A stretch of 64,000 bases of DNA from Lytechinus pictus (GCF_037042905.1 NC_087251.1:40922001-40986000); one strand, 5' to 3'. Positions 9,445 to 61,500 are shown, numbered from the stretch's first letter. Notes: generated by a model from the letters alone, not told the origin. Numbers and translations: made by a program.

Positions 9445-10554
9445 AGGGGAATGAAACCTTTGGAACAAGTTCAGGGGCCGCGGAACGGTTTTCAAAGTGG
9501 GGGGGCTGACCATGCAAAAAATCACAATCATATGGTAATTTTTACGTTTTTGTACACGGTTTTGGAAAAAAGTGGGGGGGGGGGCTGAAGCCCCCCAGCC
9601 CCCCGCTTCCGCGGCCCCTGAAGTTGGCTTTTGTGGAAACAAATCAAAGAATGAGATCAAAACAAGTTTGAGAAAAATCGGACAAATAATGAGACAATTA
9701 TGAGCATTTGAATATTACGATCAGTAATGCTATGGAGATTTTTACGTTTTTGTACACGGTTTTGGAAAAAAGTGGGGGGGCTGAAGCCCCCCAGCCCCCC
9801 GCTTCCGCGGCCCCTGAAGTTGGCTATTGTGGAAACAAATCAAAGAATGAGATCAAAACAAGTTTGAGAAAAATCGGACAAATAATGAGACAGTTATGAG
9901 CATTTGAATATTACGATCAGTAATGCTATGGAGATCCTCCCATTCATGGGCGGAAATCCCAGGGGGACGCTTCCCCCCTACCAAAAAAAGTAAGGGGGAC
10001 ACAATATCAAATGTCCCCCCTGCTATTTTTGGTATTTTATGATGGAGAAAAATGCATCATTCACAATCGAAATAATACATGTATTTTGGACTAAATTACC
10101 TTTGGGGACAGACTTCTGCCCATGCTCCCATTGGCAATGTGGCAAATATTTGTGATGTCAGATGTGAACCACTTTCCCTTTGATGGACAATAAAATACCC
10201 TAAAAATGTATCTTATTCTTTCTTAGGGTGATACAAACTCTTTATCCATAATGTATTCTTTGAAAATCTGTATTACATGCCCTCCTATAGAAAGAACACA
10301 TGATCTACTGATAGATGTGAAAAAAAGGCATTTTAAGTGAAATATACAGAAAAGTAATGGGAAAGTTGTTCACATGTGGCATCACACAACTTTGTCGCAT
10401 TGCCAGTGGGAGGATCTACATAACAATAAAGATCTAAACTTCAAATGATCTTATCTTTCTTATTATTCCTTCAACATTTCTCAAACTGTATCTGTTTCAT
10501 TGATTTTTTTTTTGCACAAGTCAAGCTATCCTGTTTCAAGGATTTCATTTTCCT
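9445..10554. mobile_element. Kolobok-like MITE carrying two nested MITEs (9472-9620; 9945-10124) and a ~200-bp tandem duplication
   Basis: TTAA-flanked host; nested CAGGGGCCGCGGAA element with TSD aagtt; nested CATGGGCGGAA element with 8-bp TSD ctcccatt. Confidence 0.75.
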
Positions 10555-13880: not shown

Positions 13881-14653
13881 GGAACTACAAAACTCTCTTG
13901 AAGAAGAACATGGAAACATAAACATTTATGACTTTCAATTAAAGCACAAGCAGAAGAAAGATTTTGGACTTTAAGTAATTCAGAATAAATATTTGTATCT
14001 GTGTTGTTTGAAGGCTGTCTACCAAAATTAAAGTTAAACAAGCTTCAAGAATATTATATTGTGTTAATAGTAAAGGCGCAAGATGAAATCATACTTTTTT
14101 GAAACTTTATCTTTAAAAAAATTTGGAGATGTATCGGTATTAGGTCTAAAAGACAAAACTATGCTTATGATATTACATTAAAGGTATCATGAATGCTTCA
14201 GCATTTATTCTCATCATCAAGAATTAATCAAACCAATAGTCCACTCAAAGTTATAATCCATCCAACTCAAGTCTCCTGTGTCAAGTACCCAACAACACAT
14301 ATGGAGACAACACATACAGTTTCTCTTGAATGTGGAGTAAAGGCATGGATTCTCGTAGGATCCATGGTAAAGGTGAGGGAAACCTTTAGCTACACCATAT
14401 ATCCAAAACCTGTTGAATTGATAACATTTGTATTAGTCTTTACAACATGGAATCCCTTTATGCAATTCTCTCTGATCTTTTTGTTGGTTCAAAGTGCAAA
14501 CCATGTTTGAATCTGAATAATATTCAACAACTTTATCGAGCTCAATACGTTAACTCGAATGTCTACAACAGGTGCTGGCGTCTAGAGGTAGAGCTTGGGA
14601 GGATGCAGACATTTTGTGTCTGATTTCCTTTATGGAAGGAATACAATATCAAC

Positions 14654-14943
14654 AAGATGGATGGTATCATAAGAAATGGTACTGTTCTCTGAAAAGCATT
14701 TGCAAGATGGTATCGAGCGTAACGCAGAACAGGTATGGCGTAAAATGAAAGGACTCAAGGAAGGTTTCAAAAGAGTAGAGCTCTGCCCCCTTGCCCAAGA
14801 AGATGGATGGTATCATAAGAAATGGTACTGTTCTCTGAAAAGCATTTGCAAGATGGTATCGAGCGTAACGCAGAACAGGTACGCCGTAAAATTAAAGGAC
14901 GCAAGGAAGGTTTCAAAAGAGTAGAGCTCTGCCCCCTTGCCCC
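14654..14943. repeat. 146-bp direct tandem duplication
   Basis: aagatggatggtatcataagaaatgg... starts at 14654 and at 14800. Confidence 0.9.
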
Positions 14944-33435: not shown

Positions 33436-36400
33436 GTACAGTACAACCCCCTTCAATTATCCAACTAACACACAGTCAAATAACCTTTATTTAGATCTAT
33501 TTTTGTAATCACTGTAATGCACAAAACATCCCATTGTGCCCTTTATCATTATCATCGATATCGTTATCGTCACCATCATCATCTTCATCATGATCATCAC
33601 CACCGTCATCAACATCTCATGATTATCATGAACATCATTATCCTCCTCTTCCTCATCATCATTGTACATGTATATACCCCATGAATAATATTCAAACAAT
33701 GATCGCATCATGTTTTATGCTGCATTTGCAAGCATAGTGTACATTATTAGAAAGGCCTTTAATAGGGAAATTGTATGTTACAGTTGACCTATGTGTGAAA
33801 TTGATATCTTCATCTGGTAATAATGTTTAAAGACGTCTTTCCGATGTAATAAGCGCTCCTCAAAGGGGAATATTATTATTGCAAAAAAGGGATTCTTTCA
33901 CTTGGACCCTGGTGAAAATTAGATGAGGACTTTGGGCAGGGGGGGGGGGGTGTCCTGCATTCAATGATAATTTTATATATTGTAATCTGAGCTTGATTTG
34001 ATCTCTGAAGCATACTGAAACCTGCATTTTATATCCATAAGAAAAGTTCAATGTCACAATATTTCAAGAGTATTTTTCAGGATTCTGCAGTCTTATTCCG
34101 CCATCTTCTGGGGCCGATTGCACGAAAGGGTCTTTTCAAGGACCGTCTTTCGTGTCGCCCATCTTTTATGATGCGCTATAAGCGGGGTGTTTCTGAAATT
34201 TATGATAAACAGATAAAATTCGTTAGCTTGCTTTTAAATCAAATTTTATACAATTTAATGAGATATCACATCATTTTATAAACATATATTTTGTTTATTT
34301 TAACGGACAAATAAAATATATTTGCAGATAATTTATTTGAAATGCGTTTCACATGGCGTATCATAAAAGATGGGCGACACGAAAGACGGTCCTTGGAAAG
34401 ACCCTTTCGTGCAATCGGCCCCTGAATGACCTTCCTTAGCAGACAAACCGTCACTTTGCATTGTATATACCCATGTACTCCATCACTCTCTTTTAATTCT
34501 TTCTTTGCAGGCAAACCTGCACATTGAGAACCTGTTTGAAGACCTCCATGATGGGAAAGCACTGATGCGTCTTCTTGAGGTTATATCGGGTGAGTCGGTA
34601 GGAAGACCCAATCATGGCAAGTTACGGGTGCAGAAGATGGAGAACATTAACAAGGCCCTCCGGTTCCTCTCATCTAAGGTTAGTCTTTTCAACTTTGTCT
34701 GTTGAAATTCATTGTTGTTTGTCTGTTGTAGATAGATGTAGACGTAAGATTGAGACAAGATTAATTAAAAGCATACCTTTTTAATTTTTTGACTAGGTCA
34801 TGTAGAAATGATGGGGTGTTTCAGAAAGATTTTAATCTGACTAAACGTTGAAGAACTTTACTGTGTGTGGTACAAAACAATACTGAATTGGTTAGGTCAC
34901 ACTCATGGGATGCGTGCTACCACGTACATGAGATTGTGTTAAAAAGCATGTGCATGTTAGCACTTATGTATGGCTTTAAGTGTGAAAACACTTCCTGTGT
35001 TTTTATTGCTTCTCGTAATTGATGAACGCAGTAAGATACATGGAGAAAACTTGAATATAGCCTGATTATAGGTAAATTGTTTTGTCTCAATTCACAATTT
35101 TATAGTGGAATTAGGTTCTGTTCAATCACCACATTCAATTCAGGTCAAAAGCTAAGGGAATGTGGAGAAATATGAATAATCTTTTATGAAATTTGTGAAG
35201 AGGCCATATCCAGTAATGTACTTTACATTTTTTTCATTGTAGTCTTTTCTATTATCGTGTTGGATTGTGCAGTGGTAACATTAAATAACTCACAAAGAAC
35301 ATGTGAATATTACATGTAATATGCATTGTTTGATTCAGTCTGTTGTAAAACAGAACTTTAGATGAGTACAATTTATTCTGCCTACCTGCCTTCAAGTTCA
35401 TCTTTATGCCAGTACAAGAATACCATGCACATGTAGATATGTCCTATATATCGTTGAGATTTTAATGTTTGTTTTGAAACGATAAAACATGAAGAAAAGT
35501 CACTCAGTATAAGTGACAGTACAGGTTGAAACAATTGAAATGTAATTTTTTTCAGAGATCACTCCAGCAGATACTTAAGCTTTCCCTTTTTGTGGAATTT
35601 AATATTTTTTTATTATTCTACATCCAAGTGAATAAAATTTTGTATGTGAGCTACATCTAGCCACTATCACATCTTTGTTTATCAATTTGATGACTAGGGT
35701 TGAAAATTATATTGCGAGACCTATGCCAAGTAGGAATGTGTACTTTGGAGTGACAGGAGTGATTTTCTATGCAAATATTGAGAGTATTAACTGCTGTGTC
35801 GTCAACATTGAAATCTTAACCAAAGTTGAGTGCTTGAAATATCCCCATAAATAGACATATTTCTTGAAACTTGGACACAATAGTAACCAAGTATCAATGG
35901 ATATGCTCCCTGAGTTGAAGGTCATGGAGGGTCATTGAATTGAACTTAGAGTATGTTGAGAGAATCATCTTCGAAATCTTAATCAAGATTAAGTTTTCAA
36001 AATGTCATTATAACTTTAAAAGTAGATGGATCTAGTTCATGAAACTTGGACATTAGAGTAATCAAGTATCACTGGACATTTTGCCTGAGTTTCAGGTGAC
36101 TCAGGTCACATGACGAGGGTCAAAAGTCATTAACGGTCAGTGAACTTAAACCATGTTGAATTATTTGTTGAAATACCTTCATAAGTTAATTTTATGGATC
36201 CTGTTTATGAAACGTGGACATAAGGGTAATTGAATATCACATATCATATTGCACAAGTCTTAGGTCACACGATCAAGGTCAAAGGTCATTTATGGTAAAG
36301 AAATGTAGTATTTCATTATCATATGAAAATGGCGCGTTTTAAACGGTGTGTTTTAAAACATGTTTTAAAACGCGTTTTAAAACACCCGTTTTTTTTACAA

Positions 36401-39400
36401 AAAAAACGTGTTTTAAAACACTGCATAGACTTGTGTGTTATAAATTTGCATTGATGTGATTTTAGATGAATGTTGTTTTTTTAATTCCGTTTTTTATTAA
36501 GTGGTGTATTATTTCCTTCCAACTACAACTCTTTTTCAACACCACTCCTTTTCTCCTCTTTCTCTTTCCCCCTTTATTCTTTCTTTCTCCATTGCTTTGT
36601 CTTGTTCCTCTTCTCCCTGTTCAATTGTGCACATCAATGATCCAATCCACATTAAGAATATTATCATTTTAACAAACATTTGAGTGTTGTGCTCACTTTT
36701 TGGACAGGGAAAGAAACACTATTTTTAAATGAGCTCAAATACATGTTAAAGAAGTACTTGAATGAAATGGAAGTGTTGCACAAGCACAATAATATTTTAC
36801 AAAAAGACTGTAAACCTGACATCATACTCTTGAGGTACACCGTACACACAAAAGCGGTAAAACTTTGTGCTTTGTAAAGATGAAGAAAAGTACTTTAAAC
36901 AGTGTAAGATAATCAGCTAGCAAACCTTAACCCTAACAATTCCAGGGGACCTTAATGGCCCCCTAAAACTTTCTATGATAAATCCATAAACACGACAGGG
37001 CCACGACATATCGTTCTAGACTATTTTTGGGATGCATGCATGGGTGTGCAGTTATGATATACACCACAAGTGCATATTATCAGATCCCAAATTGCTCAAA
37101 AATGTGATTTCATGTATAAACCCAATGTGAGTTCTTGCCAAAATTTGTATCTTTATCATTATTTGTACTTATTGTTAATGATTGGAAAATTATTGCCAAA
37201 ATTTCTATTAGTAATAAAAAAAAGTTTTAAAAATCTATACATAAGAAATATAAAAAAGTTAAAAAAACATTACCGGTAACCTAAATAGACTGGGCTATTT
37301 CATAATTATCTAAGAAGACTGAAGGCCCCCCTCCCCCTTATGATTTGGGCCCTTCGATCGCGGGATCACAACGAAAATTGGCACGCGCATTACCCATGGC
37401 ATAATCTAAAAATAGGAAATAGGGAATATATTTTGACCATAAACAAGGTGAAATTAATTGTTTTAATTGGTAAAAGGAAAAATAATGACACATTTATGAA
37501 TTTTGGCTAAAAACAGTATTTGCATTGGATTTGTACACGAATTGACGTTTTTGAGCAATTTTGGGTCTGCATGCACTTACAAAATGTTGCGTGATTTCGG
37601 AACCGCATACCAGGGGGTCGCGATTTTGGTCTCATAAGTTGCGTTAGACTAAAAAAAGGAAAGGCTTTGAGTGACGCATTAACAAAAAATTGCGCAGTGG
37701 ATTTATCGCAAAAAAATTACGAGGTGGGGGGCTGAATCAGCCCCCACGTCTCATTAGGGTTTAAAAAACATTCTATAGGCCTACTGATTTTTTCTAATAC
37801 TTTTACATTTGATCAGAATTCCTGAATTAAAAAGATAAGTAGTTCAAGGGCTTTATTTATAGATTTGAATTGAGTTTGTATTTCATGCACTAAAATTTGT
37901 ATAATTGATTCAAATGAAATAAAGTATATTGATTTACCGGTAATGAAATTAAGCTTTGAAACCCCATGTACGTCAATTTCTTCCATTGTGTGAATTCTTC
38001 TCCTCCCCCCCCCCCCCCCCCCCCCCGATTGACAAGACTCAATATACCTTGGGACTACATGTATACATGTATTAGGAATAAAGTGTCAACTTACTAAGTG
38101 TTTTTTTTTTGTAGGCATTCAATTTCCATGATTTAGTAATTTTGGGGGAAAAATGAACTTTTCATTTGGAAATTCATTAACAAAATAGTGGTCATCTCTT
38201 ATTTAAAACATCAAGAGCTTAAATCATACTGTATTTTGTGTCAGTAGTGTATAGTTTCATCGATTTACAGAAAATTGCATCATTCGTTGAAAAAAACGTT
38301 TTAAAACGATTTAAAACGTTTTAAAACAATAAAAAACGTTTTATTTGTTTTTTTTAATAAAAAACGTTTTTTATTATGAATGTTTTTTTTGTGAATAATT
38401 ATTCATGTTAATTGTTTTCAAAATCAGCACTGATGCTATGTACTGTATATATATTGAATCGCGTAATGCAGGTGAGACTGCCAGAGGTCTTGTTGTACTA
38501 CTACCTCTATTGATCGGGTCTTTTAGGAACATGTGTTGTTATGTGTGAGAGGACTGATTTGCTGTGCAAATATGGAGATTAATCACTATCTGCATGAAAA
38601 ACAAAGACTTATTACACAGTCAGTTTCATTATACTATTAACTCTATTGATCAGGTCTCTTAGAACATGTGTTGTAATGTACATAGGAAGATGTTGATATT
38701 GCCTTTTGAAGTCCTTAGAGCTACAAAGTGGCCGTAATTATGATTTTAGATTTGAAATTGCTACTGGAGAACTCTAGGAAACTCAAATAATTTTTTCCAC
38801 CAGTAGTAAAGATTGTTGATTGCATGCTTATTTTTGTCTATGGTAGTTTGATATTGGATAACACACATTGACTTTATGATGTAAAACTATGATATAATCA
38901 TGTAAATCAAGGTAGTTAATGTCATAAATTTGTTATGATTTTGGGGGTTATACATGTGTATACATGTACCATTAATATCATACTGTATGTTATTATATTT
39001 TTTATTACTGTGTTATATTCATTTATTCAAGAGGTACATGATATTCATGAAGTATCAGTTTCTGCATTATTATGGAATGTGGATTGACAAGCCAATCTGA
39101 ATTTAAGTAATATTGATCATTTTGATAATTGTGAATGGTTTGCTCCTGTTGCTCTCTCATCAATAGGCCTACATGTACATGTACTTACGTTCCTCTCTCA
39201 CATGGGACCTACATTTAGATCAGTTGTCGTGATATGGTCACCCAAGTAATCACCAGATTTCTCAAACTCAGATAATATATATAACTTGCACAAATCACAC
39301 TGAAAACCAAAGCAGGATACAACAGATTTTAGTAATACATGTAGGTGATGTTATACCCTAAAAAATAATTATCGTCACAGTCTCAAACAGATGGGCACCT

Positions 39401-42400
39401 TGAGTTACTCAGGAGTACACGGCAGTACGTCCTTTTGTCAGGCCTTCCTTGCACCAACCGACCATACCTTTGTGCATACGTGTATATGATGACAAATACC
39501 TAATTTGAATAATTATTTGATTACAGAAAGTACGTCTAGAGAGCATTGGTGCAGAAGACATTGCTGATGGAAACACTCGACTGATCTTAGGTTTAATCTG
39601 GACTGTCATTCTTAGATTTCAGATTCAAGACATTCAGGTTGAAGTAAGTATTTCTATTTTATGTGTTTTTAAAGGATAATACATTTATAAAATGAATGCC
39701 AATTTGATGTTGGTTGTTAAGACATGTGACTTCAGCATTAAGGAGGAAGTTAACCCTGACAAAAGGTTTATTGTAAAAATAGCAGAAAAGAATGACAAGA
39801 AAATATTGGTGAAGGTTTGAGGAAAATCTGTTCAAGAATGAAAAAAATATTATAATTTTGTTTATTTGTCATATGCGAGCAGCTTTCCCACACATTGTAT
39901 GGTGAAAAATCAATGAAATGTCATTTTCTCAGAAAATTGAAAATAGTTTGTATTGAACTTTCAGTATATCATTAGACAAGTCATTTTAATTAGTCTTCAC
40001 GAGCCATTAAAAATTGGAAATTTATGCAATTTATATTTATACATAAAATATGGGGAAGCTGTTTTTACATGTACATGTATATGATGTCACAAATAAAAAA
40101 AAATAAATTCCAATAACTTTTCTATTCTTTGATGGATTTTCCTCAAACTTTCACCAATATTTTTCTTTTTTTTCCTGCTACTTTTACAAGAAACTTTTAT
40201 CAGGGTGACCAATTTATTAGCCGGATTATGGAAGCTGTCTCAGATGCATTTAGGTTATGCCAAAATTTTTCAAATTTGAAAAGTCTTTTAGCTGCATTGA
40301 CTGCCCTCTGTTGTTAACTTGTTCCTATGCACAAAGTATTTATAGCTACAATGTACATTCAGGGTACATTGTAACAATAGCATAGTTCATAGGTCATGCT
40401 AGGGTCATTCAGAATTCATGTATTCCAGTAGTACAGATCTGGACTATCCTGTGGTCATTAAAACCGACCCTCATTCATTTCCAAACTTTGGTTTACATAT
40501 CTAGTATTTTAAAACAGTTCCTGATTTGATATGATACTTTAAAAACCTTTGGGCTGGTATTTTTACATGATAAGCCTTATGTTTAGCCCATTTCTAAAAA
40601 TCAATATTACTTTATTTTTTATCAGTACAAAGCAGAACCTTTTCCTTTAAATTGTGTCTTCTTTTTTTCCAATAGGATGATGGATCAACTGAAACGAAAT
40701 CTGCAAAGGAGGCATTGTTGCTATGGTGTCAAAGAAAGACAGCAGGGTAAATATCATATTGGCTTAGATCATTGTTTAATCATTTTGAAAACAAAATAGT
40801 GTCAAAGGGTTGATCTCAAATTTTGAGGAAAATCAATGTTTTGTTCAAATGGATAGATTCAAATAACACTGAATTAGATGGGGCTACAGAAATCTACTGT
40901 ACTAGGGGTAATTCTATTTGCACTCACACGTATTGCGAGGTTAGTATTAGTATACTAGCCTCGCACCATGAACCGCGTTTGGCAGTGGATTTCTAACTAG
41001 TCAGGTTCAGATCCAGGAATTACAAAAAAGTGGGGCAAACATTTTCTGACAATTACGGGGAAAAAATAATTTGGTAAAATCAATGTTACTACCATCAGAG
41101 GCACTTTCTTGCCTAGAATTTCAGATAAGCAAAAAAGAAATGTCCTCAAAAAGAGGGAGAGGGGGCACATACCTCTAAATGGATTTGCAAGTGTTCTACA
41201 TGTATATGAATCCCTATTATGCCTTGCCAGAGGGACGACATGGCCATTCCATTCGGTACATGTTAAAGGTAGCTAGGTTTTTTTTTTCTTTTAACCTCTT
41301 TATTTTCATGAGATACAAGGTGTTCTCACACCTACCGATGGTTGAAAATTATCGATTTATTTTAATGAATCAGTTTTATGATTTGCTAGTATACCATACA
41401 AGCTTCTAATGCTGATTCATATGTGGTATCACAGTTTAACACTTGGTGAGTTTATTGATGGTGGTAGTAAATGGAGGGGTGAGAGTTGAATGATGAATGT
41501 TTTTCTAATAAATTGAAGTATGCACCCCTAATTGCTTTTGACTTGTTTGGGTTGGAAGAGCTGTGGTGTACTGATGGGTGTTTCATGAAAGTTGCCGGCA
41601 CTGACTTAATTATCAGTGCTGGCAATTTCAGTGAAATCCTTGGTTTTGATTGGCTGAAAAGCACTGGCCTCTGACTGTTACTATGGTAACTGTCGGAGAA
41701 AGACAACTTGTCAGTGCTGACAACTTTCATGAAACGGTCCCCTGGTTGTGCCTCTCTCCATGTTAGCAGAGGGTCATGAGTTCAAATCCAACCGCGTCCT
41801 AGCGTCCCTAGGCAAAGCATTAATCCACACTTTGCCATGCTCCACCCAGCTGCTAAATGGGTACAATGTGAAAGTCATTTTAGCTTGTCCAGTACTGTGT
41901 GTTTCAATGGCGATTAGCTAAAATACTCCCCAGGGAGTGGAGGATGTGCATACATTGTGTGTGGGAATGACCGATTGAATCTGATGACAGGAGCAATGAT
42001 AAATCTGTAAGTGCTTAAATATTTACAATGTATGTCTTGGGTACATAAGAAATGCCAGATTCTTATTGTTGCTGTTATTTTTCTTTGATTTAGTTATCCT
42101 GGAGTGGATGTACGTAACTTCACTAGCAGCTGGCGATCTGGTTTAGCCTTCAATGCACTTCTTCATGCTCACAGGTAAAGTACACATTCATACATCATTA
42201 AATGGTCTAAACTAGCTAGCAAATAATCTGTACTGACCGCAAAGAAACGTTGCTAGCGCTAACAGAGGCCCTGTTACAACCAGTTATGTGGCAGTGATGG
42301 CAAATGTTACAACGATACATTACTTACACATTGAAATAAATGTTTTGACTTCACAATCCGAAAGATGTGACTGGGCTTACTGTTAGTGCTCTGTTAGGCT

Positions 42401-45400
42401 AACAACGTTTCTGTGTGGCCGACATTGGTATTTAGATTGTCCGACTAGGTTCTACCTACTGTGCCGTTATCGCTCTCCATATCTCCCTATCTCTCATTTA
42501 CTTTAGTTTTGGAGAATCTAGTGCTTAACCCCTAAAACCATCAGGTATCCCTCAGAGGATCCTTTGGGTTGAGCAATAATAAATGGTTTTTGGAGTCTTT
42601 TTGAGGATAACATCACAGGAAGGATACCTAATTGAGTTGTCTTATCGAGGGTACTTTCATACAAACAATATTTTTAGGATACTTTCACATTTGGAGTATC
42701 TTGACGATATTTTGGACTTGAATGTTTTAAAAATACTTTCACATGGGAGTCTCTGTCAAGGAGTAATTTATTGGAAATATGTCGATGTAAAAAATTATTA
42801 CTCTCCATTTTAGTATTTGCTATCATTTTGTGAGAATTCTTTACCAGTTTTTTAATGTAAACTTCTTTTTTTTTTTTTACCTACAGACCAGAGCTATTGA
42901 ACTTTGAAGTATTGAAACATCAGAGTAATATAGACAATCTCAACAATGCTTTTAAGTTGGCTCATGAGAGGCTTGGTATAGCACGACTGCTCGATGCTGA
43001 AGGTAATCATACAGGCCCTTTTTCTCGAGAGGGGGGGGGGGCTCACTTATGAAAAAAAAAATTGTTCTTGTCAACAAAAATAGTTGACCATGGAGATAAA
43101 AGGAGATAGAATGAGTCACCATTGTCCTCATTCACAAAAAATAAAATTGTCAACAGTAAGACGGTCATTAGCCTCCTCAAAAAATTGACAAGCAAAAGAA
43201 TTATCAACTAAATTACTTTTCACCAGAGGGGGGGGGGGTGTTTCATGCAAGCTCCCTGTTTGTATGATCCAGTCGTACTACGCCTTCTCGAAAAGTTTGT
43301 GTGCGTTTGTAAAAAGCGGACACTAACTAAGGAGCTTTCATGTTGGACAATGGATGCTTCTTCAACGATGGTCAATCGATATCTGTGTCCCATTGGATGT
43401 TCAGTGTTTCTCTCTTACGAATAAATCATTCTGATTTTCAGGACGTGAAAAAGTTTCATGTTGGCATTTTAAGCAAAAGTCTAATTCACAAAAAAGTCAT
43501 AAAAATTGAAGGACTGATGCAACCCCAGGATTGACGTATATACGCAGATGGTTCAATTTCAATTTCTTCATTGAAAAGCAATGCTGTTAGTAATGAAAGC
43601 TCCTCATTGTTTACACTATGGAAACTATGCAATTTAAAGATACTTGTTAACATATTGGAGAATTCCTTTACCATATGATTCATTTGCCATTTATTTTAGT
43701 TGTGCAAGATTTGAAATATAGTAATAATCCCATTCATTCTAGAGTCTTCTGCAGTGTCAAGTATTACTGCACCATGATTTGTATTGTATTAAAAGACATC
43801 AATGAGACTATTATTTATACTTTCACAGATTTAGATGTAGAGAGACCAGATGAGAAATCAGTGATGACATACGTTGCTGCCTATTATCACTATTTTGCTA
43901 AAATGAAGACGGAGAAAACAGGTGGCAAAAGAATTGCAAAGGTATACTATTTCACATTTGAAGGAAAACAACTTGTAGGTTTTTTAAATCCCGAACAAGA
44001 CACTTTGAGCTCCAGGTCAAGTCTGATGTGTAAAAGCTCAATCATTTTTGTCTCGCCTGCATAGCAAAGTGAGACTATAGGCACTGCTTTTCTGACGGTA
44101 GCGGCGGCGTCGTGAACATTGAAATCTTAACCAAGGTTAAGTTTTTGAAATGTTATCATAACTTAAAAAGAATGTGGACCTAGTTCATGAAACTTAGACA
44201 TAAGGGTAATCAAGTATTACTGAATACCTTGCTTGAGTTTCAGGTCACATGACCAAGGTCAAAGGTCATTTAGGGTCAATGAACTTTGGCAATGTTGGGG
44301 GTATTTGTGGAGTTGTCATCATAACTTTGAAATTTTGTGGATCTAGTTTATGAAACTTAGACATAAGAGCAATGAAGTATCCCTGAAGATCCTGTGCAAG
44401 TTTTAGGTCACATGAACAAGGTCAGAGGTCATTTAGGGTCAACAAACTTTGGTAATTTTGGGGGTATTTGTGGATTTTGTCATAACTTCAAAAGTTTGTA
44501 GATTTATTTCATGAAACTTGGACATAAGAGCAACCATGTATCCTTGAACATCCTGTGTGTTTCAGGTCACATGATGAAGATCAAAGGTCTTTTAAGGTCA
44601 ATGAACTTTGGCCGTGGTAGGGGTATTTGTTGAATTGGCATCATAACTTAAAATGTTTATGGATTTAGTTCATGAAACATAGACATGAGGGTAATCAAGT
44701 ATGAATGATTGCTTGCACACGTCTTAGATCACATGATCATGGTCAAAGGCGATTTTGGGTGACCGGACATAGTATTTTATTATCTTTTCATTTGTGAATA
44801 ATTATTCAATAGCTGTTTTCAATGTCCGCACTGCTGCTATATCAAATCGCTTAATGCAGGCGAGACTGCCAGAGGTGTTCCACTTGTTAGTTACACATAC
44901 ATGATAACATGGGCTGCAAGGGAGAATTGAAAAATGTAAGAAATATTTACTTGAACAAAGTTTCCCAAGAAGAATAAGGATTGATTGAATAGTGATATTC
45001 CACGTAAACTGAAATTCTTAAATAAACTGAAATTGTTAAATAGAGCTTTAAATCACTTTGCAAGAGAAACATTGTGATCAATGCCTGATGTTGAGTATAC
45101 TTCAAATGGTTGATTTATCTATCAGAATTCACGTGAAGGGGTTAAATCAAGATAACGGCGCAACCTGCCTACATGAATCATGAAACATACAGATTGGTCA
45201 ATACAATGTATACCCTACACTGAAAAAAAATCCCATGATAGAATTAGCATTGCATATGATTTCTATTCCCATATTTTGATTATTTCATCTCATATATAGA
45301 TTATCAGTCAAATCAAGGAGATAGATAATCTTCAGGATGAATATGAGAGATTGGTAAGTGATCTATTAGAATGGATACAGAGTACAACAAGAAAGCTGAG

Positions 45401-46559
45401 TAATAGAGATCTACCAAACCTACTAGCCGGGATTCAAGAAGAGATGGCTAGATTCAAAACATACAGGATGGTAGAGAAACCTCCAAAGTAAGTTGATAAT
45501 TTCATTCACTCACCGTCATCGTCATCATCATTTATCTATTCATTCATTTATTTACATATTTTTGAAAAATGAATTGAATTCATTTATTTTCCATTGAAAA
45601 AAACATGCAAAATCAAGAATATACAAACATTACATAGTTTAAAAATGAGACATTATACAAATGACGTATCATACTTTGAAAATAAATGCAAAATACTTTG
45701 TTTTATATATACATATTGGGAAAATTGGATGCCCATGGGAGCAGTATTCTTGTTGGGTTGGGTCACCCAGAAAATATATGAATCAGTAAATGTTCGAATA
45801 CATAATACATTTATATGGAATACTAAATGGATAAAACTTCTATCAACAATATTGATATATTACATATTTATACGATACTTTATAACTAATAACCCGACCC
45901 ACCCACCAAACATCCATTGGCAAAGAATGCCAAATGTCTGGACCTGTGTGGCGAATAGACTTTCTGATAGTTATACAGGTTGGTACAGAATTGGTGGTCT
46001 TACATGAGGCCCTGTTCACAAATAAAACATTTTTAGTAAGAATAAAACAAGATATAACATATGTACAGACAAGTATACAAATGTGTATATTGAACTTAAT
46101 TGGTATCTTTGTGTATTATATTTATTTGATAATCTTCCTTTACGTTTTCAATCAGACTGATGGATTTAATTTTAAATTGTCAATATAATTTAATGATACT
46201 GAAGCAAAATTTGATTGAAGAAACTGAAACCACATATCAAGTGTGTTAGAGAGTGATTGTCACTCATCACAGGATACATCCAATTCTACAGTGTATGCAT
46301 GTCTCAACCCATATGGTTTGAAATTATGTCTTTTTCTTAAAATGTGGTAATGCTTTCATATATCATCATCATCATCATCACAATCATCATCATCAAGATC
46401 ATCACCATAATCATCATCACTATCATCATCCTCATCATCCTCATCATCATTATCATCATCATCATTACCATCATCATTATAATCACCATCATCATTATCA
46501 GCATCACCATCGTCAACATCATCGTCACCATCATTATCATCTTCATCATTATCTTCAAT

Positions 46560-46591
<32 letters not shown>

Positions 46592-49500
46592 CATCACCAT
46601 CAATATAACAACAACATCATCAACATCATCATCACCATCATTATCATCATCACTTTCATCATCTTAATCATCATCTTCAATATCATCATCATCACCATCA
46701 TCATCAATATAACAACAACATCATCATCACCATCATTATCATCATCATCATCATCACCATCAATATAACAACAACATCACCACCACCATCATCACCATCA
46801 TCATCATCATCAATAATAACATCATCATCATCACCATATTCATCAATATAACAACATCATCATTAATATCATCATTACCATCATCATATATTGCATTTAC
46901 AATATCACCATGAATATCACAATCGTCTCTGTGTTCTCTATTTATCTTCTTCATTTTAAAAGTCCCTTATCAATATTCATTATTTGATGTACGATAGGTA
47001 TGCTGAGAGGGGGAACATAGAAGCCACATTATTCAGTATTCAGACCAAGATACGAGTGTGCAGACGCAAGATATATGTTCCTCCTGAGGGCAAACTCATC
47101 AATGACATAGAGAAGAAATGGGCTCTTTTAGAAGAAGCAGAGCACAAGAGGGAGACTGCACTCCGAGAAGAACTAGCCCGGCAAGAAAAACTTGAGAGGC
47201 TTGCCGAGAAGTTTGAGAGAAAGGTAGGGTAAATCTTCAAAATACCGTTGATTGATGACACTTTTGAAATAAGAATCTAACTTTCTTTGTACCATTGGTT
47301 GCATTCATAGTATCATTAAAGGTCAATTCCACCCCAGTAAAATGTTGATTTGAATCGATAGAGAAAAATCAAACAAGCATAATATTACAAATTTCATTGA
47401 AATCGGATGTAAAATAAGAAAGTCATGAACATTTTGAAGTTTCGCTTATTAAAAAAAAAAACAGTTCTACTCACAACTTAGTGACTTTAAATGAGAGAGT
47501 CAATGATGTCCATTACTCACTATTTCTTTTGTTTTTTATTGTTTGACTTATACAATATTTCATTTTTTTACCAATTTGACATTAAGGACCAACTTAACTG
47601 AACCATAAAATGTTACAACAATGGTAATAATAGTGAGTCAGAGATGTCATCAGTTCCCTCATTTGCATACCGACCAGGATGTGCATATTACTGTTTTGTG
47701 AAATAAAGCGAAACTTAAAAATGTCATAACTTTCTTATTTTACATCCGATTTTGATGATATTTTCAGTGTTATGCTTGATGGATTTTTCTCTTTTTCTTC
47801 AAATCAACTTTTTGTTGGGGTGGGCTTGTCCTTTAAAGCTTTAGTTCATGAGTTCCCAGTGGATGTTTGGAAGTACTTCTTTATCATTTTTATGTAACAT
47901 TTATCTGTTTCCTTCAAATACACTGCCTCATTAATTGAACCAATGATCAATGATCATAAAAATTTTTTTATCATGATAACTTTTAATAATTTGTTTGCAA
48001 AGAAAAAAAAATAATAATATGGGTATATTTACCCAGGGAAGCCACTTCAGTTCTGAAAACTGTTCTCCCAGCGGGCCCTGCTATTATTATTACCCCGGCT
48101 TTAGCTGGGCTGCCTAGGCGCTCAAAGCATTCAAAAAAAAATTTCCTACCGGGTACCCATTCACCTCACCTGGGTTGAGTGCAGCACAGTGTGGATAAAT
48201 TTCTTGCTGAAGGAAATTACGCCATGGCTGGGATTCGAACCCACGACCCTCTGTTTTAAAGTCAGAAGACTAATCCACTGGGCCACAACATAACAAAAAA
48301 AAAAACCCAACTTACAGTAGTAGCTACCTGTATGTAGCGTCTTGTTTTATCACAAATTTCTATTCTGCTTCAAGTTTGATGCAGTACTGAAGTATTGTTC
48401 TTGATCATTTAAGCTGGCTCAAATTCTTGTCCTGGAGAAACTTTGGAGGTAAAATTCAAAGAAATTACTTTCATTTTAATAGATAGATAGATAGATAGAT
48501 AAATGGTATTTATTGTGATAAAAATTCAATTAGCAGCCAAAGGCTGAATTACATGAATTTGTACAGAGTAAAATTTCAGTAAACAAACAAGCGAAACAGT
48601 AAAAAAAAAATGATAACAAAGTATACTAATGTATAATATTGGAAAGGGGATACAAAGAGAAAAGTATACAGAGGGAGAAATAATAGAGTCTGTTTCATCA
48701 TCCTTGTTGTTCATGTAGACTGACTGGCCATCATATTGTTTGTTTTTTATTTCCATATAAAAAGTCATAAATAAAATACATGAAAATCATAGAAATATCT
48801 ACAATGGAGGATAGCCCATTTCACTGATATTTACAAAATATCACTGTTCTTCCATGGGGTCCTAATTAAACAAAAATAACTCAAACAGATGTAAGATTGA
48901 AAATTAAAACAAAGCATAAAACACAAAACAATAACTAAATCAGTATTGAACAAAAATAAGATGAATAAAAGAAAACCTAGCTAACTCAAAATCATGTATA
49001 ATGCAACAAATAATCAAGGTTGCAACAGATAATCAAAATAATCAAGATCATGTGTTATATATCTTTGATGCTTTTCTCTTTTTTTGTCAGGTTCTGTTGA
49101 GAGAATCGTGGTTAGAAGACATGATGAGTGTATTGATTGAGAGTGTAACGCCTAGTAGTGATGTACATGCAGTAGATGCAGCCACTAAAAGACACGAAGC
49201 CATAACAGCTGATGTCATGGCCAGGGTAAGTATTTCAAAAATGAGCTAGGAATATAGAAACATTTCCTTGGAATAATTTATTTCTACCCATGAATGATAT
49301 GTAAGGTGAATGAAGAGCACATATTTTCATGAATAACTTATATGCTTTTCTCACTGCATTTCCTTAACCCCATACTATCCTTAACCCGGACTATCCTTAA
49401 CCCCATACTTTCTTTTTTTTTCGATTCACACTGTCTTTCTTAACCCCGTACTATTTGCTTAGCCGGGGTTAACGCCTTAACCCCAGGCAATCACACAGCT

Positions 49501-52500: not shown

Positions 52501-55500
52501 CAATGAAAGGATAATTTTCATCTTACTTCCTTGTTATTCATGATAGAGGTAATGATTTATAATTAAAAATTTATTTTATTTCAAGTTCCAATAATAAAAA
52601 TTACAAAGCAATGCAAAATATCATGCGACTAGAAAAAAAAGATGATGTACCAGGTAAGTCAATGAAATTTATTGTATGTTCATATTCCCTATTTCTCGTT
52701 TAATAACAAAATAATATTTTTTCTAAACAACTTTTCACCATATGATTAAAATTGTTTTTCTCTGTGAATGAGTTGTCTAGTGGCATTCCATGAGAATTTT
52801 CTAGTGGCACTCCAAAGTTAGCCCTAGTTTTAACGAAACCATTTTTAAAAATGAGAATACCACCCCTGGTGTTAAAACAATTTGTATATATCCAGGTGTG
52901 AATTTCTAGTTAAGATTATGTACTATTACTGCTACTTGATAATTTCCTTTTTGTTGTAGAATCAAAGAGATGAGTCATATCAGGAAGTCTTGCCTGGAGG
53001 ATTCCTTGAAGTTCTTTCAGTTTATGAGAGACAGTGAAGAGGAAGAGTCTTGGTTGATGGAGAAACAGCGCATAGCCAAGTCAGCCGTAACTGGACGTGA
53101 TCTACGCAGTGTGCTTAGTATGAAACAGAAACATGCAGTGAGTACAACTTCATGTAACCAAATTTATCAAAGAAAGAGATGAATACTTATCTTTTTATGG
53201 TGATTGGATTAGCATTGATAATTATTTTGTGATATTTAAAAGTAAAGTATATTAGTCTGTTATAGTGCAACATTGAGTGTTGATTTAAACTACAGAACAT
53301 GGATCATTTAAGCCTGTATTATAATGAATTTGCTTAATATATCAAAGTACATACATAAGTCATTTGTGCTCAGTTTACTCCTCTAAATACAGTGTTACTT
53401 TTTAATAGAATTTATGTATTTAGAGTTTAAGAGTAGCTTTAAAGAATCTTGAGTATCTAAGAGTAGTGAGATTAAAAATAGAAACCTTCCTTAACCATGT
53501 TCTTGCTTTCTCAGGTGCTTGAAGCAGAAGTAATGGCCAGACAACGGACGGTCCAAGGAGTACTGGACACCGGTCAAGAGTTAATTGATACCGGTCATCC
53601 ATCTAAGCGTAAGATCAAGACACGGATGGAGAGCGTTGGAGAGAAGATGGAGCATTTGAAGGAGTATGCAGAAGGAAGGAAGCTCAGGCTACAGATGGCT
53701 GTACAATCTCATGAGGTAGGTCACCTAGACCGCTTTACACAAAGAACTGTAATTGATAGAAGATATCAAACAGTGATTAAGGGATTTCAGATGGCTGTAC
53801 AATCTCATCAGGTAGGTCACCTAGACCGCTTTACACAAAGAACTGTAATTGATTGAAGATATCAAACAGTGATTAAGGGACTTCAGATGGCTGTACAAAC
53901 TCATCAGGTAGGTCACCTAGTCCGCTTTACACAAAGAACTGTAATTGATTGAAGATATCAAACAATGATTAAGGGACTTCAGATGGCTGTACAATCTCAT
54001 CAGGTAGGTCACCTAGACCGTTTTACACAAAGAACTGTAATTGATTGAAGATATCAAACAGTGATTAAGGGACTTCAGATGGCTGTACAATCTCATCAGG
54101 TAGGTCACCTAGACCGTTTTACACAAAGAACTGTAATTGATAGAAGATATCAAACAGTGATTAAGGGACTTCAGATGGCTGTACATTCTCATCAGGTAGG
54201 TCACCTAGACCGCTTTACACAACAAACTGTAATTGATTGAAGATATCAAACAATGATTAAGGGACTTCAGATGGCTGTACAATCCCATCAAGTAGGTCAC
54301 CTAGACCGCTTTACTCAAAGAACTGTAATTGATTGAAGATATCAAACAATGATTCAGGGACTACAAATGGCTGTACAATCTCATCAGGTAGGTCACCTAG
54401 ACCGCTTTACACAAAGAATTGTAATTGATTGAAGATATCAAACAATGATTAAGGGACTTCAGATGGCTGTCCAATCTCATCAGGTAGGTCACCTAGACCG
54501 CTTTACACAAAGAACTGTAATTGATTGAAGATATCAAACAATGATTAAGGGACTTCAGATGGCTGTACAAACTCATCAGGTAGGTCACCTAGACCGCTTT
54601 ACACAAAGAACTGTAATTGATTGAAGATATCAAACAATGATTAAGGGACTTCAGATGGCTGTACAAACTCATCAGGTAGGTCACCTAGACCGCTTTACAC
54701 AAAGAACTGTAATTGATTGAAGATATCAAACAATGATTAAGGGACTTCAGATGGCTGTACAATCTCATCAGGTAGGTCACCTAGACTGCTTTACACAAGG
54801 AAACTGTAATTGATTGAAGATATCAAACAATGATTAAGGGACTTCAGATGGCTGTACAATCTCATCAGGTAGGTCACCTAGACTGCTTTACACAAGGAAA
54901 CTGTAATTGATTGAAGATATCAAACAATTATTAAGGGACTTCAGATGGCTGTACAATCTCATCAGGTAGGTCACCTAGACTGCTTTACACAAAGAACTGT
55001 AATTGATTGAAGATATCAAACAATGATTAAGGGACTTCAGATGGCTGTCCAATCTCATCAGGTAGGTCACCTAGACCGCTTTACACAAAGAACTGTAATT
55101 GATTGAAGATATCAAACAATGATTAAGGGACTTCAGATGGCTGTACAAACTCATCAGGTAGGTCACCTAGACCGCTTTACACAAAGAACTGTAATTGATT
55201 GAAGATATCAAACAATGATTAAGGGACTTCAGATGGCTGTACAAACTCATCAGGTAGGTCACCTAGACCGCTTTACACAAAGAACTGTAATTGATTGAAG
55301 ATATCAAACAATGATTAAGGGACTTCAGATGGCTGTACAATCTCATCAGGTAGGTCACCTAGACTGCTTTACACAAGGAAACTGTAATTGATTGAAGATA
55401 TCAAACAATGATTAAGGGACTTCAGATGGCTGTACAATCTCATCAGGTAGGTCACCTAGACTGCTTTACACAAGGAAACTGTAATTGATTGAAGATATCA

Positions 55501-58500
55501 AACAATTATTAAGGGACTTCAGATGGCTGTACAATCTCATCAGGTAGGTCACCTAGACTGCTTTACACAAAGAACTGTAATTGATTGCAGATATCAAACA
55601 ATGATTAAGGGACTTCAGATGGCTGTACAATCTCTTCATATAGGTCAACTTTGCCCTATCCATGACACAAAGAATTATCAAACAAGGATCAATATTTTTT
55701 ATGATGGTTTTCTTAGTAAACAACCAAACAACTGTTTTTTGCCTTATGGTGATGATCTTGATTGGTCATTTCCATTTTATGATTGATATCGATGCTACAT
55801 GGCCCTGGGTCCTGTTGAATAACAGTTACTATTATGGTAGTGTTGGAATCGATTGGTAACTACGATCATCAGCCAATCAAAATCAAGGATTCCATTAAAG
55901 ATACCATTGGATGGTAAAGTTGCTATTATAGTAAATTTTATGCAAAGGATCTTGTCAAGATTAGGGTAGTGACTATCATTCTTATTCTATCTCATTCAAA
56001 AATGAGAACCAAAATTCTTTAAACATGGTTATTGTCAAAAACTTTTTGCAAACAATATTTTTTCATCACTTGTACAAGGCAATAGATGAAATACATTATA
56101 GGTTATTTTCGCATTATAGGGGGTCTAGAATGTAAGGTTATACACCGCTATTTTAATTGTCAAAGATGCTTTCCTGTTATATTTCTACATTATTTAAATT
56201 TAAAGTTTCACTCACGACTAGTGATTCTTTCATATTGATGACAATTTTGCCTCATCCAACATTTATCATGAAATATTTCCTGAAGCATTCTTTTTTTTTT
56301 CCTATATTACTTTTTTTTTAAATGATCAATTGTATACCTGGTTTAAAGATAAATACCAGTTGCGGTAACAATCCCAAAATGAGTTCAAACAGAATTTAAT
56401 AAAATTACCACCCAAGTATTTGTATGTATAAGTAAAAAAATATATGTGCCAAAATGGCTGTGGAAGAAAATGTGTAATTTCTTAGAAATGAGCAAAATAA
56501 GCACAGAGTCCCATCGAATGTTGGGTATTTTCCCCAAGAAATATTAATACACTGTCCCATATATTCTTTTCTGTGTTAGTGATCAACAGAATTATCGGTT
56601 TTGAGCTAAGATTTCATGATTTCACAAAGTTTGCATTAATGTTCCAGTTCTACATATATGATAATATGGTGACAATTAACCTTGATTTAAAAGACTTTCT
56701 CATGAAATAATTGTTTGCTGCAAGTACTTTCTTTTTTATACCTTTGATATTTAGTACTACATTGATGCTAATGAAGCTGAATCGTGGATGAGAGAGAAGA
56801 TGCCATTGGTCTGCAGTGATGACTATGGGAAGGATGCGGATTCAGCTAAGACTATGCTGCAGAAGCACACAATACTGCATGAAGAGATACAGGCTTATGA
56901 GAATGAGGTGGTACAACTCAGAGAAAATGGAGAGAAGATGATGACCACCATCAAATCTAATCAAGTAAGTTGAAGATGAGGATCCAGGGCCCTGTTCAGA
57001 AATTATTATAATGAAACGGAACACAAAAAATTGAACCACTGTATTTGCACTTGAATCTTTTACTTGCATTCAAACCCTTGTATCTTTTTGCATTGGGCCC
57101 TGATGTAGCGGAAGATGCATGAAGAAAGGCTGAAATATAAACTGGCATTACGGTATTGGAGCACTAATGAGCTTTCAGAATACCACCCCTTGTCAGGTTG
57201 GTTTATGTGGGTTGGAACAAAGCCTTGAAAGTGGTGGGGGACAAATTCCTATAATCCAGCAGTATGAGGAACTTAAAGAATTGATTCAGTGGTCCTGGAT
57301 TTATGCGCAGCGTCATGCCTTGCCAATGATGACATTAAAAATGGGCATTTTGATTTGAACTAATAGGCCTGTATTCTGAAGTCGGGTTTAACTTAAACTC
57401 AGGTTTAAAGTTGCGGTTAAAGTATGGATAGCCAATTGTTACATAAATCACTAACAGTAGAGATATAATATTCCACCTCATTTGGCTCTCAAATCCTTAA
57501 CTGTGTAGGAAGTATGAAAAGATGATTGTCTTCACCATCGATGAATCAGGAATGAGTACAGTAAACATAAGAAACATACAACTTCAAGCGCCATGAGCGC
57601 CCAGCTGAGGCGGATACCGGCGCTATACAAGAACCCATCATCATCATCAACTTAATACAAATTTTGACACTTTTGGCTTCCCGTAAGTTTAGCACAGAGT
57701 TAGACCATGGTCTAAGTTAAACCTGACTTCAGAATACGGGCCATTGTGTCTGATTGATATGCTTCTGCAAAAACCCAAGCACAAATACGCACACATACAT
57801 GAATTAGCGATTTGATTTTAATGACAGGTCGGTATGATATTGTACATTGTTCCTTTCAACAGACAAAGATGCAAGGGAGATCATCACCCCTGATGGATGA
57901 GGAATCCTTTACAACGGAGACGGTCGATGTTTCTTATGAGGTGGAGGAGGAAGAGACCGTTGAACGAGAGGTCATCAAGGAAGTGATTGAAGAGAGGAAG
58001 TATCCTCAGGTCAAAGCCTTGTATAACTACAAAGGAGAAGACATGAAGATAGCCAAGGGAGAGGTGAGAATGATTTATATTACATAGGTTATGTAGATTC
58101 GAATCAGTGATAGGTCAATACGCCATCACGTGACCATAGCTGCGAGGATCGCATTTGTTATATTCTAGGTTTTGACGTCACCTCAGTGAATATAACTGCG
58201 TTGTATTGTCATTTGCGGCGTTATATTCACTAAGGTGACGTCACTCGCTGCTTACAAGTTGCGTAATCAGGTAGTTTATTAGATGTACACGCTAGTGTTA
58301 ATGCGTCGATTGCATGAAGAACGCGCTTGATTTAATTTCCAAAATTTGTCCATTATGACGTAAATGGATCAGAGCTGCAGCGAGAATTTCAAGTTAATCA
58401 GAGAGCCAGATGATGGATGTAATCTCTGATGGCGAATCTACATAGACTATATAATATAACAGATATTGCTTGGTCTATCTTTTTGATAAATAAAATTTCT

Positions 58501-61500
58501 ACTCCCCTCCGAAGCTATATTATTCCCTCGGGAGAATATTTTCCCTCAGCTCTCGGGCAAAATATAGTCCCTTGGGTAAAATATAACTCCGTTGGGGAGA
58601 GGAAATGTTTTATTCAAACTCTAGGTAGGCAATATCTGTATAATATCCACTTGGATTACTTCTCAGGTAGTCTAATACCACATGGACTGGACTCTTTTGG
58701 CCAGGTCTACTTTCAATTTGGTCTACTTGCCGTTTTGTCTTCCGTGCACCAATTCTCATTGGCCCGTATTCTGGACTCGGGTTCTAATTAAACTCTGGTT
58801 TAAAGTTGTTTAAAGACCATGGTCTAATTTAAACGTGACTTCAGAATACAGGCCATTGAGTCTTCTACTCAACTTGTTGAATTTCCACTTTGTTCGCTGA
58901 CTCAGTTAATAAACAGTTCACCTAACCATGGAGACAAAGTGGTGTCAGTCTGTCAGATCAAGCAGATATTAGGAAAAATGTTTTTTTAACTGGAAATTAG
59001 ACTGGTGATTGGGAATTAGATTAAATGATCAGTAGAAGAACTGGATATAGACGATCTAGGAGGAGACCATGTGCGATTGACCAAGGGAAAGTAGATATAG
59101 TAAGTGTAGAACAATCATCAATTCAGTCTGAGACCTACAGTTGATTGGACATTGTCGTGCAGGTATCATACAGTTAGTTCCTTGCTTCAGACTTCCTCAA
59201 TCATCAGTTTTGGATTCATATCATTCTTTTACCTACTTCCCTCATTCCCAGATACATCATGCCATCTGATCTCTCATCAATGATTGAGGAGAGAAGGAAA
59301 ATTGTTAAAATTCATCTCTGCTGTGTTTAAAGTTAGACAGGAAATTGATTTTGCCATGAGGTATATTCCTATCTATATGACAGCTGTATGCCTGTATGGG
59401 AGGCATGTCTGTACTTTAGCAGGTGTTATTTCTTGCAATTACCCACAAACCAAATCGAGGCCATGCACAGTAGGGCAGTGCATTTTGTTACAGGTGACTA
59501 CTTCACGTTTAGCAATGTCTTTACCTTGAAGGAAAACCTTGACTTGGAACCACTGCATCTATGCCATAAACTTAGCAGCTTAACAACAGTTTTGGAGGCA
59601 CATGGGAGTCTTCTATCCATCCCAGTATAAGAAGTCCTGTATCCGGTCTAAAAATGCCTCCAGAAATCTTCCTCCTTAAACTGCATTCCAATCTCCTTCA
59701 ACAAATACTGCTAAAATTATTCATTCATACTATCAACCAGACCTCTCAACCATTCTGAATTTGGGGGACAAAGAAAATTCTTGACAATTTTTGTGCTCTT
59801 CTTTCATTAAGATTTTTCGATATAAAAGAAAACATTTTACTGCCCAGCCATAAGGAACATAATGCTCCGCTTTTTTGAGCAAAATCCTCCCTTAAATCCC
59901 GAACCATCTAAATCAAGAACATTTAATAAAAAACAGTACTTAAAACCTTCAGAATGCAAAACAAAAACTAATGCACATCTTCTCTCCTTAAACCATGATT
60001 ATCGATGCACCTCCTGCCGAGATGGCTCCAACCCTGAGTCGGTAATCAGTACCCAAGAAGAAAAGTATCTATGAAACTGTCATGTCTGCTTCCGAGATGG
60101 ATGTCTCCTGAGGTATACTTCTCTCTTTTTCTGTAGATAATGATCTTGATTGAGAAGAGCAACACTGATTGGTGGAGTGTGAGGAGAGGAAACGCCCAAG
60201 AGGGCTTCATCCCAGCAAACTATGTCAAAGAGGTCACTCCAAAGGTTGTGAAGAAGAAGGTCAAGAGAAAGGTCAAAGTTCCCGAGAAGGTCATGGTGAA
60301 GAAGACAAAGATCAGACAGGAGATAATCAAGAAGAAGAAACCAAAGGATAGGAAGAGTGTGCTATCAAGGTCTGGCAGTGGTAAGGCTCTTGATTGTCTC
60401 TTCTACCCCATTAATGCATAAACACAAAACAACCCCTGAATACCTTTGCACTCTAATTCCCTAAATAAAGCTTCGGTCAATTACAAACCTTGATTAAGTA
60501 CATTCCTCAAGTATATTTTGAAGAAGATTATGCTAATTTCAAATATGGCAGCCACAAAACATGGATCTATTTATAAGCACATTCACGTTTATGTTCTTGT
60601 AGAATCCTCTATGCAGAATGTATATATTTCCTGATTTCTGTTGTAAATGTGTATTCTTGTAGAGTTGTATGTGAAGCATGTATGCATTGATTTGTTTTAT
60701 GCTCTAGAAATATCAGTTTATTATTATTTAATGTTTTTATAATCATTGATGTGAGTATGGTTATGATGTACATGTAAGAGAGAAATACTACTTTCTCATG
60801 TTACAATAAACTAATATGGATTGTTATCAATGAATTCATTGACTTTTAAACTCCTTTCTGTGAATCAAAGCAGAAATGAATTTTGTAATGTTTTGTTAAT
60901 CAAATGTGTCTGAGGGGAACCTGCATTGAACAAGGCATACCAGTTTTCAGTCTAAGGGGATGTTGCAATTTTACAATTGATTGATCAATTACAGCTTTAG
61001 CAGATCAGATTACACTCCTTGTCGCAAGAAGCAGATCAGCTCCCAATCTCAAATTTGCAATTAATTGCAAGAATTGTGATCGATTTAAGGACTGATAAGA
61101 GACTTGAGATTGGTTACAGGTTTCTTGCACCCCCCCCCCTATAATTCTCAATCTACGCCTTGACAGTGGATTTGCAGACCTTATAATCATAGCCACAGTA
61201 GATCATGATCTATTGTGGATGAAATCCTTGATCCCCGATATATGATAACTTAACTTGACTTTAAAGCTCTCATTGGTATTCAAATATTTGATAAAAGTTA
61301 ACTTGGCTATTCAATTTGAGAGCATTTTTTATTATTAAATAATTAATGGATAGGATTCCCCTAAAGCTTATCCCATTACATTTATTTTCATGTAGTCAGG
61401 AGACAGAGCCATCATTTTGATGAAGACAACATTGAGTTAAGACTAGCCTCCATCAACGGCACATACAAGAGACTACGCAAACTGAGTGAGGCTAGGTCTA

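Follow-up and report, generated by a model that had tools for sequence, protein, structure and literature searches.

A minisatellite repeats a splice donor 20 times in a betaH-spectrin-like gene of Lytechinus pictus, and its first copy is likely the one used

When the end of an exon, splice donor included, is copied repeatedly into the intron that follows, which donor is used, and do the copies serve as exons? This question is raised by a gene that fits betaH-spectrin in a 64,000-nucleotide stretch of the Lytechinus pictus genome (GCF_037042905.1 NC_087251.1:40922001-40986000; referred to as the window), where a minisatellite begins inside a coding exon and carries an intact splice donor 20 times. 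The original prediction for this locus read the array as candidate in-frame microexons that would yield spectrin isoforms of variable length, or else as a run of decoy donors that must be suppressed. The data described below point to a minisatellite that likely grew from a tandem duplication of the exon end together with the first 72 bases of the intron. In the spliced RNA seen, the first donor alone is used, the other 19 copies likely being removed with the intron and the protein remaining unchanged.

The array was delineated with Tandem Repeats Finder (period 96, 20.3 copies, 96% matches, score 3568) and with a script that located 21 unit starts and 20 donors. The donors (GTAGGTCA, n = 20) run from 53716 to 55544, exactly as had been described. 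The predicted 96-bp unit bounded by AG and GT holds for most of the array, but 4 of the 20 units measure 97 bp, which shifts the reading frame, and unit 7 departs from the scheme with a CAA/GT donor and an AA end (the slash marks the splice position), which leaves the next cassette without its AG. Fourteen of the 20 unit sequences are distinct, with a mean pairwise difference of 4.1%. Elsewhere in the window the donor 8-mer does not occur at all, and the repeat unit finds no match except for the terminal unit. The first unit straddles the exon/intron boundary (array start 53692, exon end 53715), so that the last 24 nt of the exon are the start of that unit.

Within the units, the 21-nt phase-0 cassette and the 75-nt GT..AG spacers are present as predicted. 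The cassette peptide, predicted as MAVQSHQ, is less uniform: the real exon encodes MAVQSHE, five copies MAVQTHQ and one MAVHSHQ, and six downstream cassettes thus carry a residue change. An AG precedes 19 of the 20 downstream cassettes and a GT donor follows 19 of 20, all in phase 0. The first unit is indeed free of in-frame stops, a state that it shares with units 5 and 20. In keeping with the prediction, joining the donor at 53812 to exon 56755 would add 96 nt and 32 amino acids without a stop; it is the sole pseudo-donor with a stop-free product, and all 18 donors beyond it (donors 3-20) run into a stop in unit 2.

Use of these donors was assessed in four of 24 listed sequencing runs, mapped to 52900-53845 only, with the junction to 56755 taken from the letters of loose ends rather than as a mapped joint. 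About 6 in 100 of each of the runs X22 and X23 was read, giving 13 raw reads in all; none of the 24 listed runs contains half of the words of the region 52950-57000. In X23 (7 reads), all three reads that cross 53715 go on into exon 56755, whose first 30 bases they match. X1 is represented by a single contig (depth 20.8) that shows no difference over both exons and also joins 53715 to 56755, and the 6 reads of X22 do not extend as far as 53715. Splicing of the neighbouring intron, 53138-53514, is evident in each of the three RNA-type runs (3 reads in X22, 2 in X23, and the X1 contig). The most upstream donor is the one used in the spliced RNA seen (3 of 3 reads, one contig), and the 53715 to 56755 junction, which the original prediction had named as the mark of an inert array if seen alone at depth, is the only one in this spliced RNA, at low depth.

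RNA depth is zero in all three RNA-type runs at 53732-53845, a stretch to which reads derived from each of the 20 spacers would be expected to map. Neither a joint from 53715 to 53791 nor a loose end at 53811 is listed, at a low depth and with listing requiring 3 reads or a contig, and a 21-nt insert between 53715 and 56755 is absent from the three reads and the X1 contig. Homologues spanning the region comprise one sea-cucumber protein and one snail protein. Both orthologues, P0031 (residues 99 and 100) and P0032 (residues 718 and 719), are contiguous across the array junction, which indicates that the first donor yields the conserved exon length.

The acceptors that precede the cassettes are no better than random intronic AGs. 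Their pyrimidine share at positions -24 to -4 is 0.38-0.43, compared to 0.52-0.86 in 15 real acceptors of the gene, which bears out the weak tracts anticipated in the original prediction. The nearest upstream AG lies 9 nt from the cassette acceptor, as against at least 22 nt in the real acceptors, and scores range from -3.7 to -6.9 for the cassettes and, with leave-one-out scoring, from -1.3 to 9.6 for the 15 real sites; of 1105 random intronic AGs, 59% have a score higher than the median of the array. The spacers are 75 nt long, whereas the shortest among 13 measured introns has 377 nt.

Based on these data, the best explanation overall, in which we place good confidence, is that the exon is defined by the acceptor at 53514 and the donor at 53716 and that the whole 3039-nt intron is removed. 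The array would have expanded through unequal exchange or slippage, its inner units becoming homogenised, and its copies, finding no acceptor partner, would be taken out with the entire intron. The first donor would win as the site that is paired across the 201-nt exon with the sole good acceptor and is transcribed first, a selection step proposed by analogy with the 5'-to-3' selection in human F7. Donors 3-20, if rarely used, would lead to a stop and to removal by nonsense-mediated decay, whereas donor 2, on the rare occasions of its use, would lengthen the protein by 32 residues; a minor leak to other donors may occur.

In F7 intron 7, which carries a 37-bp variable number tandem repeat, mutating the sites one after another established that splicing picks the most upstream donor still intact, even over better pseudo-sites (Borensztajn et al. 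2006, PMC1557585). As in F7, the exon/intron boundary falls within the first unit of the spectrin array, copies of the donor recur along the intron, and no donor but the most upstream one is seen in use. It differs in size (96 bp x 20 compared to 37 bp x 5-9), in the number of exon bases per unit (24 compared to 4) and in that its copies carry a different letter at -3 and are a better match to U1 than the real donor is; the F7 case also includes minigene and allele data. Unit size and copy number are matched by LMNB2 (100 bp x 10-15) and PDGF intron 4 (81 bp x 16-18), where, as given in the same text, only the authentic donor is used (PMC1557585). That the 19 decoy donors are ignored, as one branch of the original prediction would have it, fits the evidence (3 of 3 reads, one contig); because repeated donors are silent in F7, LMNB2 and PDGF (PMC1557585), no special suppression is needed here.

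A further parallel is given by the amphioxus "mirages" in Adh3, troponin C, the globins BflGb6/9 and PGBD5, in which splicing is undisturbed and boundary units are excluded (PMC3087553, PMC3902484). These too are boundary repeats with AG/GT in an invertebrate deuterostome, with normal splicing, concerted inner units and diverged boundary units, whereas the present array, whose copies outnumber the 2-7 of the globin and PGBD5 cases, lies in another animal group and gene. Human boundary repeats that do alter splicing are reported (PMC2812944). In the Rogers model, as cited in PMC3087553 and PMC2812944, introns are gained through tandem duplication of AG/GT sites; duplicated AG/GT sites are the raw material here as well, but no new intron or exon is seen, and the array lies wholly inside an existing intron. 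A literature search that left out most subscription papers, judged by title and the start of the abstract, found no sea-urchin precedent on this gene.

Units 9-14 and 15-20 form a pair of 578-bp blocks with one letter different, the frame-shifting 97-bp units having been copied along. The match of the terminal unit past its first 17 letters was reached in 11 of 2000 shuffles. Inner units are homogenised (4.1% mean difference, block duplication), and the boundary unit has diverged (58 of 67 aligned letters alike, with 3 gaps); the degenerate terminal unit is left out of homogenisation. Variant columns number 6 of 21 in the cassette and 16 of 76 in the spacer (p = 0.56), and because the cassettes vary as freely as the spacers, there is no constraint on the cassette. 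Together, the array would appear to show the pattern of minisatellite turnover.

A further view is offered by a related species, organism B (DNA run X6), whose neighbouring intron shows 29 differences from the window in 377 letters. Organism B is identical over 53692-53721, including GAG/GT; beyond this point, 6-7 bases into the intron, its two branch contigs carry dissimilar sequence. In that sample, therefore, the donor is not adjoined by the array, and the C at -3 of the array copies is likely the derived state. The DNA contigs of organism B show no depth on the array spacer, a hole that says nothing on sequence further along. Since the 9 differences in 67 letters of the terminal unit do not stand apart from the 29 in 377 between the window and the organism B intron (p = 0.15), the first duplication is not placeable before or after the split from organism B.

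Several side observations were made. Short organism B contigs starting at 53692 were considered for a special meaning, but likely reflect a mere 30-31-letter overlap of contigs branching at 53722. Past 53721-53722, three short motifs of the organism B intron are absent from the window; this sequence may be the end of a small transposon, in which case one intron start would have been struck by two separate events. At positions 53526 and 53550, the covering reads of X22 (3 of 3 and 4 of 4) carry the organism B letters, while X23 and X1 match the window; either shared polymorphism or a differently labelled sample may account for this. In metagenome contigs, the exact 30-letter exon-end/donor pattern had 0 matches, and the exon protein found 2 related loci that match residues 12-32 only.

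Exclusive use of the first donor is weakened by several points. Counted against the U1 consensus, 18 of the 19 pseudo-donors match at 8 of 9 letters, compared to 7 of 9 for the authentic donor. Zero alternatives in three reads allows an alternative share of up to 63%, and the RNA therefore shows the main form only; in addition, contigs drop rare forms and loose ends with fewer than 3 reads are unlisted. The RNA derives from other individuals, which may not carry the array. Finally, the acceptor model is crude, being trained on 15 sites of the host gene, most of whose exon ends were set by homology rather than RNA.

These points leave some room, though not much, for a leaky ladder of donors, in which the donor at 53812 is used in a minority of transcripts, adding 32 residues between two spectrin repeats, while later donors produce stop-carrying messages, so that the array slightly tunes betaH-spectrin output. 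Such a leak would draw on the better U1 match of donor 2 and on the stop-free first unit. It has precedents in human 6-16 (25 pseudo-sites) and CBS intron 13 (15-20 copies), where the nearest one or two pseudo-sites are used as well (PMC1557585); such use was not seen here, at low depth. Against it, RNA depth on spacer 1 is nil, and no loose end was found at 53811. As 3 of the 20 units are stop-free, this state needs no selection, and selection for a stop-free first unit was rejected on that ground. The 32-residue extension matched no Pfam family. In F7, moreover, pseudo-sites of raised U1 match, with consensus values up to 91, failed to compete, although perfect sites did so (PMC1557585). Considerably more doubtful is the possibility that the array acts as a splicing substrate in another tissue or stage and supplies the helical linker between two spectrin repeats with 7-residue cassettes or with the 32-residue extension, such that a mutable minisatellite would set betaH-spectrin length and a young exon array would be forming.

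The original proposal of in-frame 21-nt microexons that vary the length of the spectrin is poorly supported and must be considered highly improbable. Its appeal lies in the form of the units, with 19 of 20 downstream cassettes preceded by AG and 19 of 20 followed by GT, all in phase 0, and in the position of the 7 residues, perhaps two helical turns, at the linker between two spectrin repeats as judged from Pfam positions. Microexons are limited in size to 27 nt. Those dependent on SRRM3/4 have an upstream pyrimidine tract and usually, though not of necessity, a UGC near the acceptor (10.1101/2024.09.17.613571). The cassettes share with them the 21-nt length, the phase and the flanking AG and GT, which is a likeness of form only, but they lack a pyrimidine tract and have UGC within 25 nt of the acceptor in 0 of 20 cases. 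Against it stand acceptors at background level, an unconstrained cassette that is not seen beside the donor in organism B, and, at low depth, the lack of an insert in three of three reads and in the contig. A YAG that lies inside the exon, some multiple of three nucleotides ahead of the donor, is also found in 7 of 16 exon ends of the host gene, and a phase-0 "cassette" is therefore expected by chance when an exon end duplicates.

Equally improbable is recursive splicing, in which each CAG/GT would act as a zero-length exon and the array would be removed stepwise, leaving the mature RNA unchanged. Eighteen of the 19 pseudo-donors read YAG/GT, and this AG, behind a 21-nt AG-free zone, scores from -0.8 to -4.1, above the cassette acceptor. 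Even so, at most one of the 15 real acceptors scores lower than these sites, the intron measures just 3039 nt, and no intermediate was seen, at low depth. An array inflated or invented by the assembler is the least credible reading, because the 14 distinct units with ordered, shared variants and the decayed terminal unit are unlike mis-assembly, even though no independent run was shown to contain the spacer, the 578-bp blocks differ at one letter and the copy number could still be off.

The features on which removal of the whole intron from the first donor is based are collected in the table below, together with the exons that identify the host gene. Between 34511 and 61577, Pfam identifies exons with CH domains (in 4 of 4 tested), with spectrin repeats (in 5) and with an SH3 domain, and for one CH exon the top match among solved structures is a beta-spectrin. 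With two CH domains, spectrin repeats and SH3, the predicted product fits betaH-spectrin, as originally proposed, whose layout combines CH domains, repeats and SH3 (PMC11361641). A betaH-spectrin would also be expected to have about 30 repeats and a C-terminal PH domain; the gene extends beyond the window, and its PH domain would lie outside. No stop interrupts the reading frame when the eight exons between 45300 and 56964 are joined.

Features of the array and of the host gene (window coordinates)
Feature	Position	Strand	Evidence
Minisatellite, 96/97-bp unit, 20.3 copies	53692..55647	+	Tandem Repeats Finder and unit script
Authentic splice donor GAG/GTAGGT, GT at 53716, U1 match 7/9	53713..53721	+	Loose ends at 53715 run into start of exon 56755
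19 pseudo-donors: 18 CAG/GTAGGT, 1 CAA/GTAGGT	53812..55544	+	Donor scan
Recent six-unit block duplication, 54463-55040 and 55041-55618, 578 bp each, 1 difference	54463..55618	+	
Degenerate terminal (21st) unit, dead donor (AT for GT)	55619..55692	+	58/67 aligned letters alike, 3 gaps
Coding exon, 67 codons, 201 nt	53515..53715	+	RNA contig X1, 0 differences; P0031 residues 33-99; ends at P0032 residue 718
Preceding coding exon with a spectrin repeat, joined to 53515	52960..53137	+	Pfam Spectrin; joint 53137 to 53515, GT..AG
Downstream coding exon (next spectrin repeat), normal pyrimidine-rich acceptor, score 3.9	56755..56964	+	Pfam Spectrin; first 30 bases equal X23 and X1 loose-end letters
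Exons for two N-terminal CH domains	34511..43001	+	Pfam CH on 4/4 exons tested; tblastn with P0032
Exon with part of SH3 domain, marks betaH-type gene	60137..60385	+	Pfam SH3_1, E 4.2e-06

Other repeats were observed in the window. A second intronic tandem repeat (44155-44702; 163 bp x 3.4, 79% matches) lies inside the intron 43942-45299 of the spectrin gene, clear of exon boundaries. A long ATC trinucleotide repeat of approximately 177 copies (46362-46887, 72% matches) stops some 110 bases short of the acceptor at 46997, whose score of -1.3 is the lowest among the real acceptors. Two-copy tandem duplications with 96% matches lie ahead of the spectrin gene at 9531-9935 (196 bp) and 14650-14942 (146 bp), and no long open reading frame of note was found in 1-40000.

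The array is likely a fresh example of the already known class of exon-boundary minisatellites, rather than a bank of mini-exons. It provides one more natural case of good donors being ignored behind the true donor, here in an echinoderm and with decoys whose match to U1 exceeds that of the true donor itself. For gene predictors and read mappers it carries a caution, in that the array copies are not to be called exons. Should donor 2 or the cassettes be used after all, the locus would represent a minisatellite that alters a structural protein and a testable early stage of exon birth.

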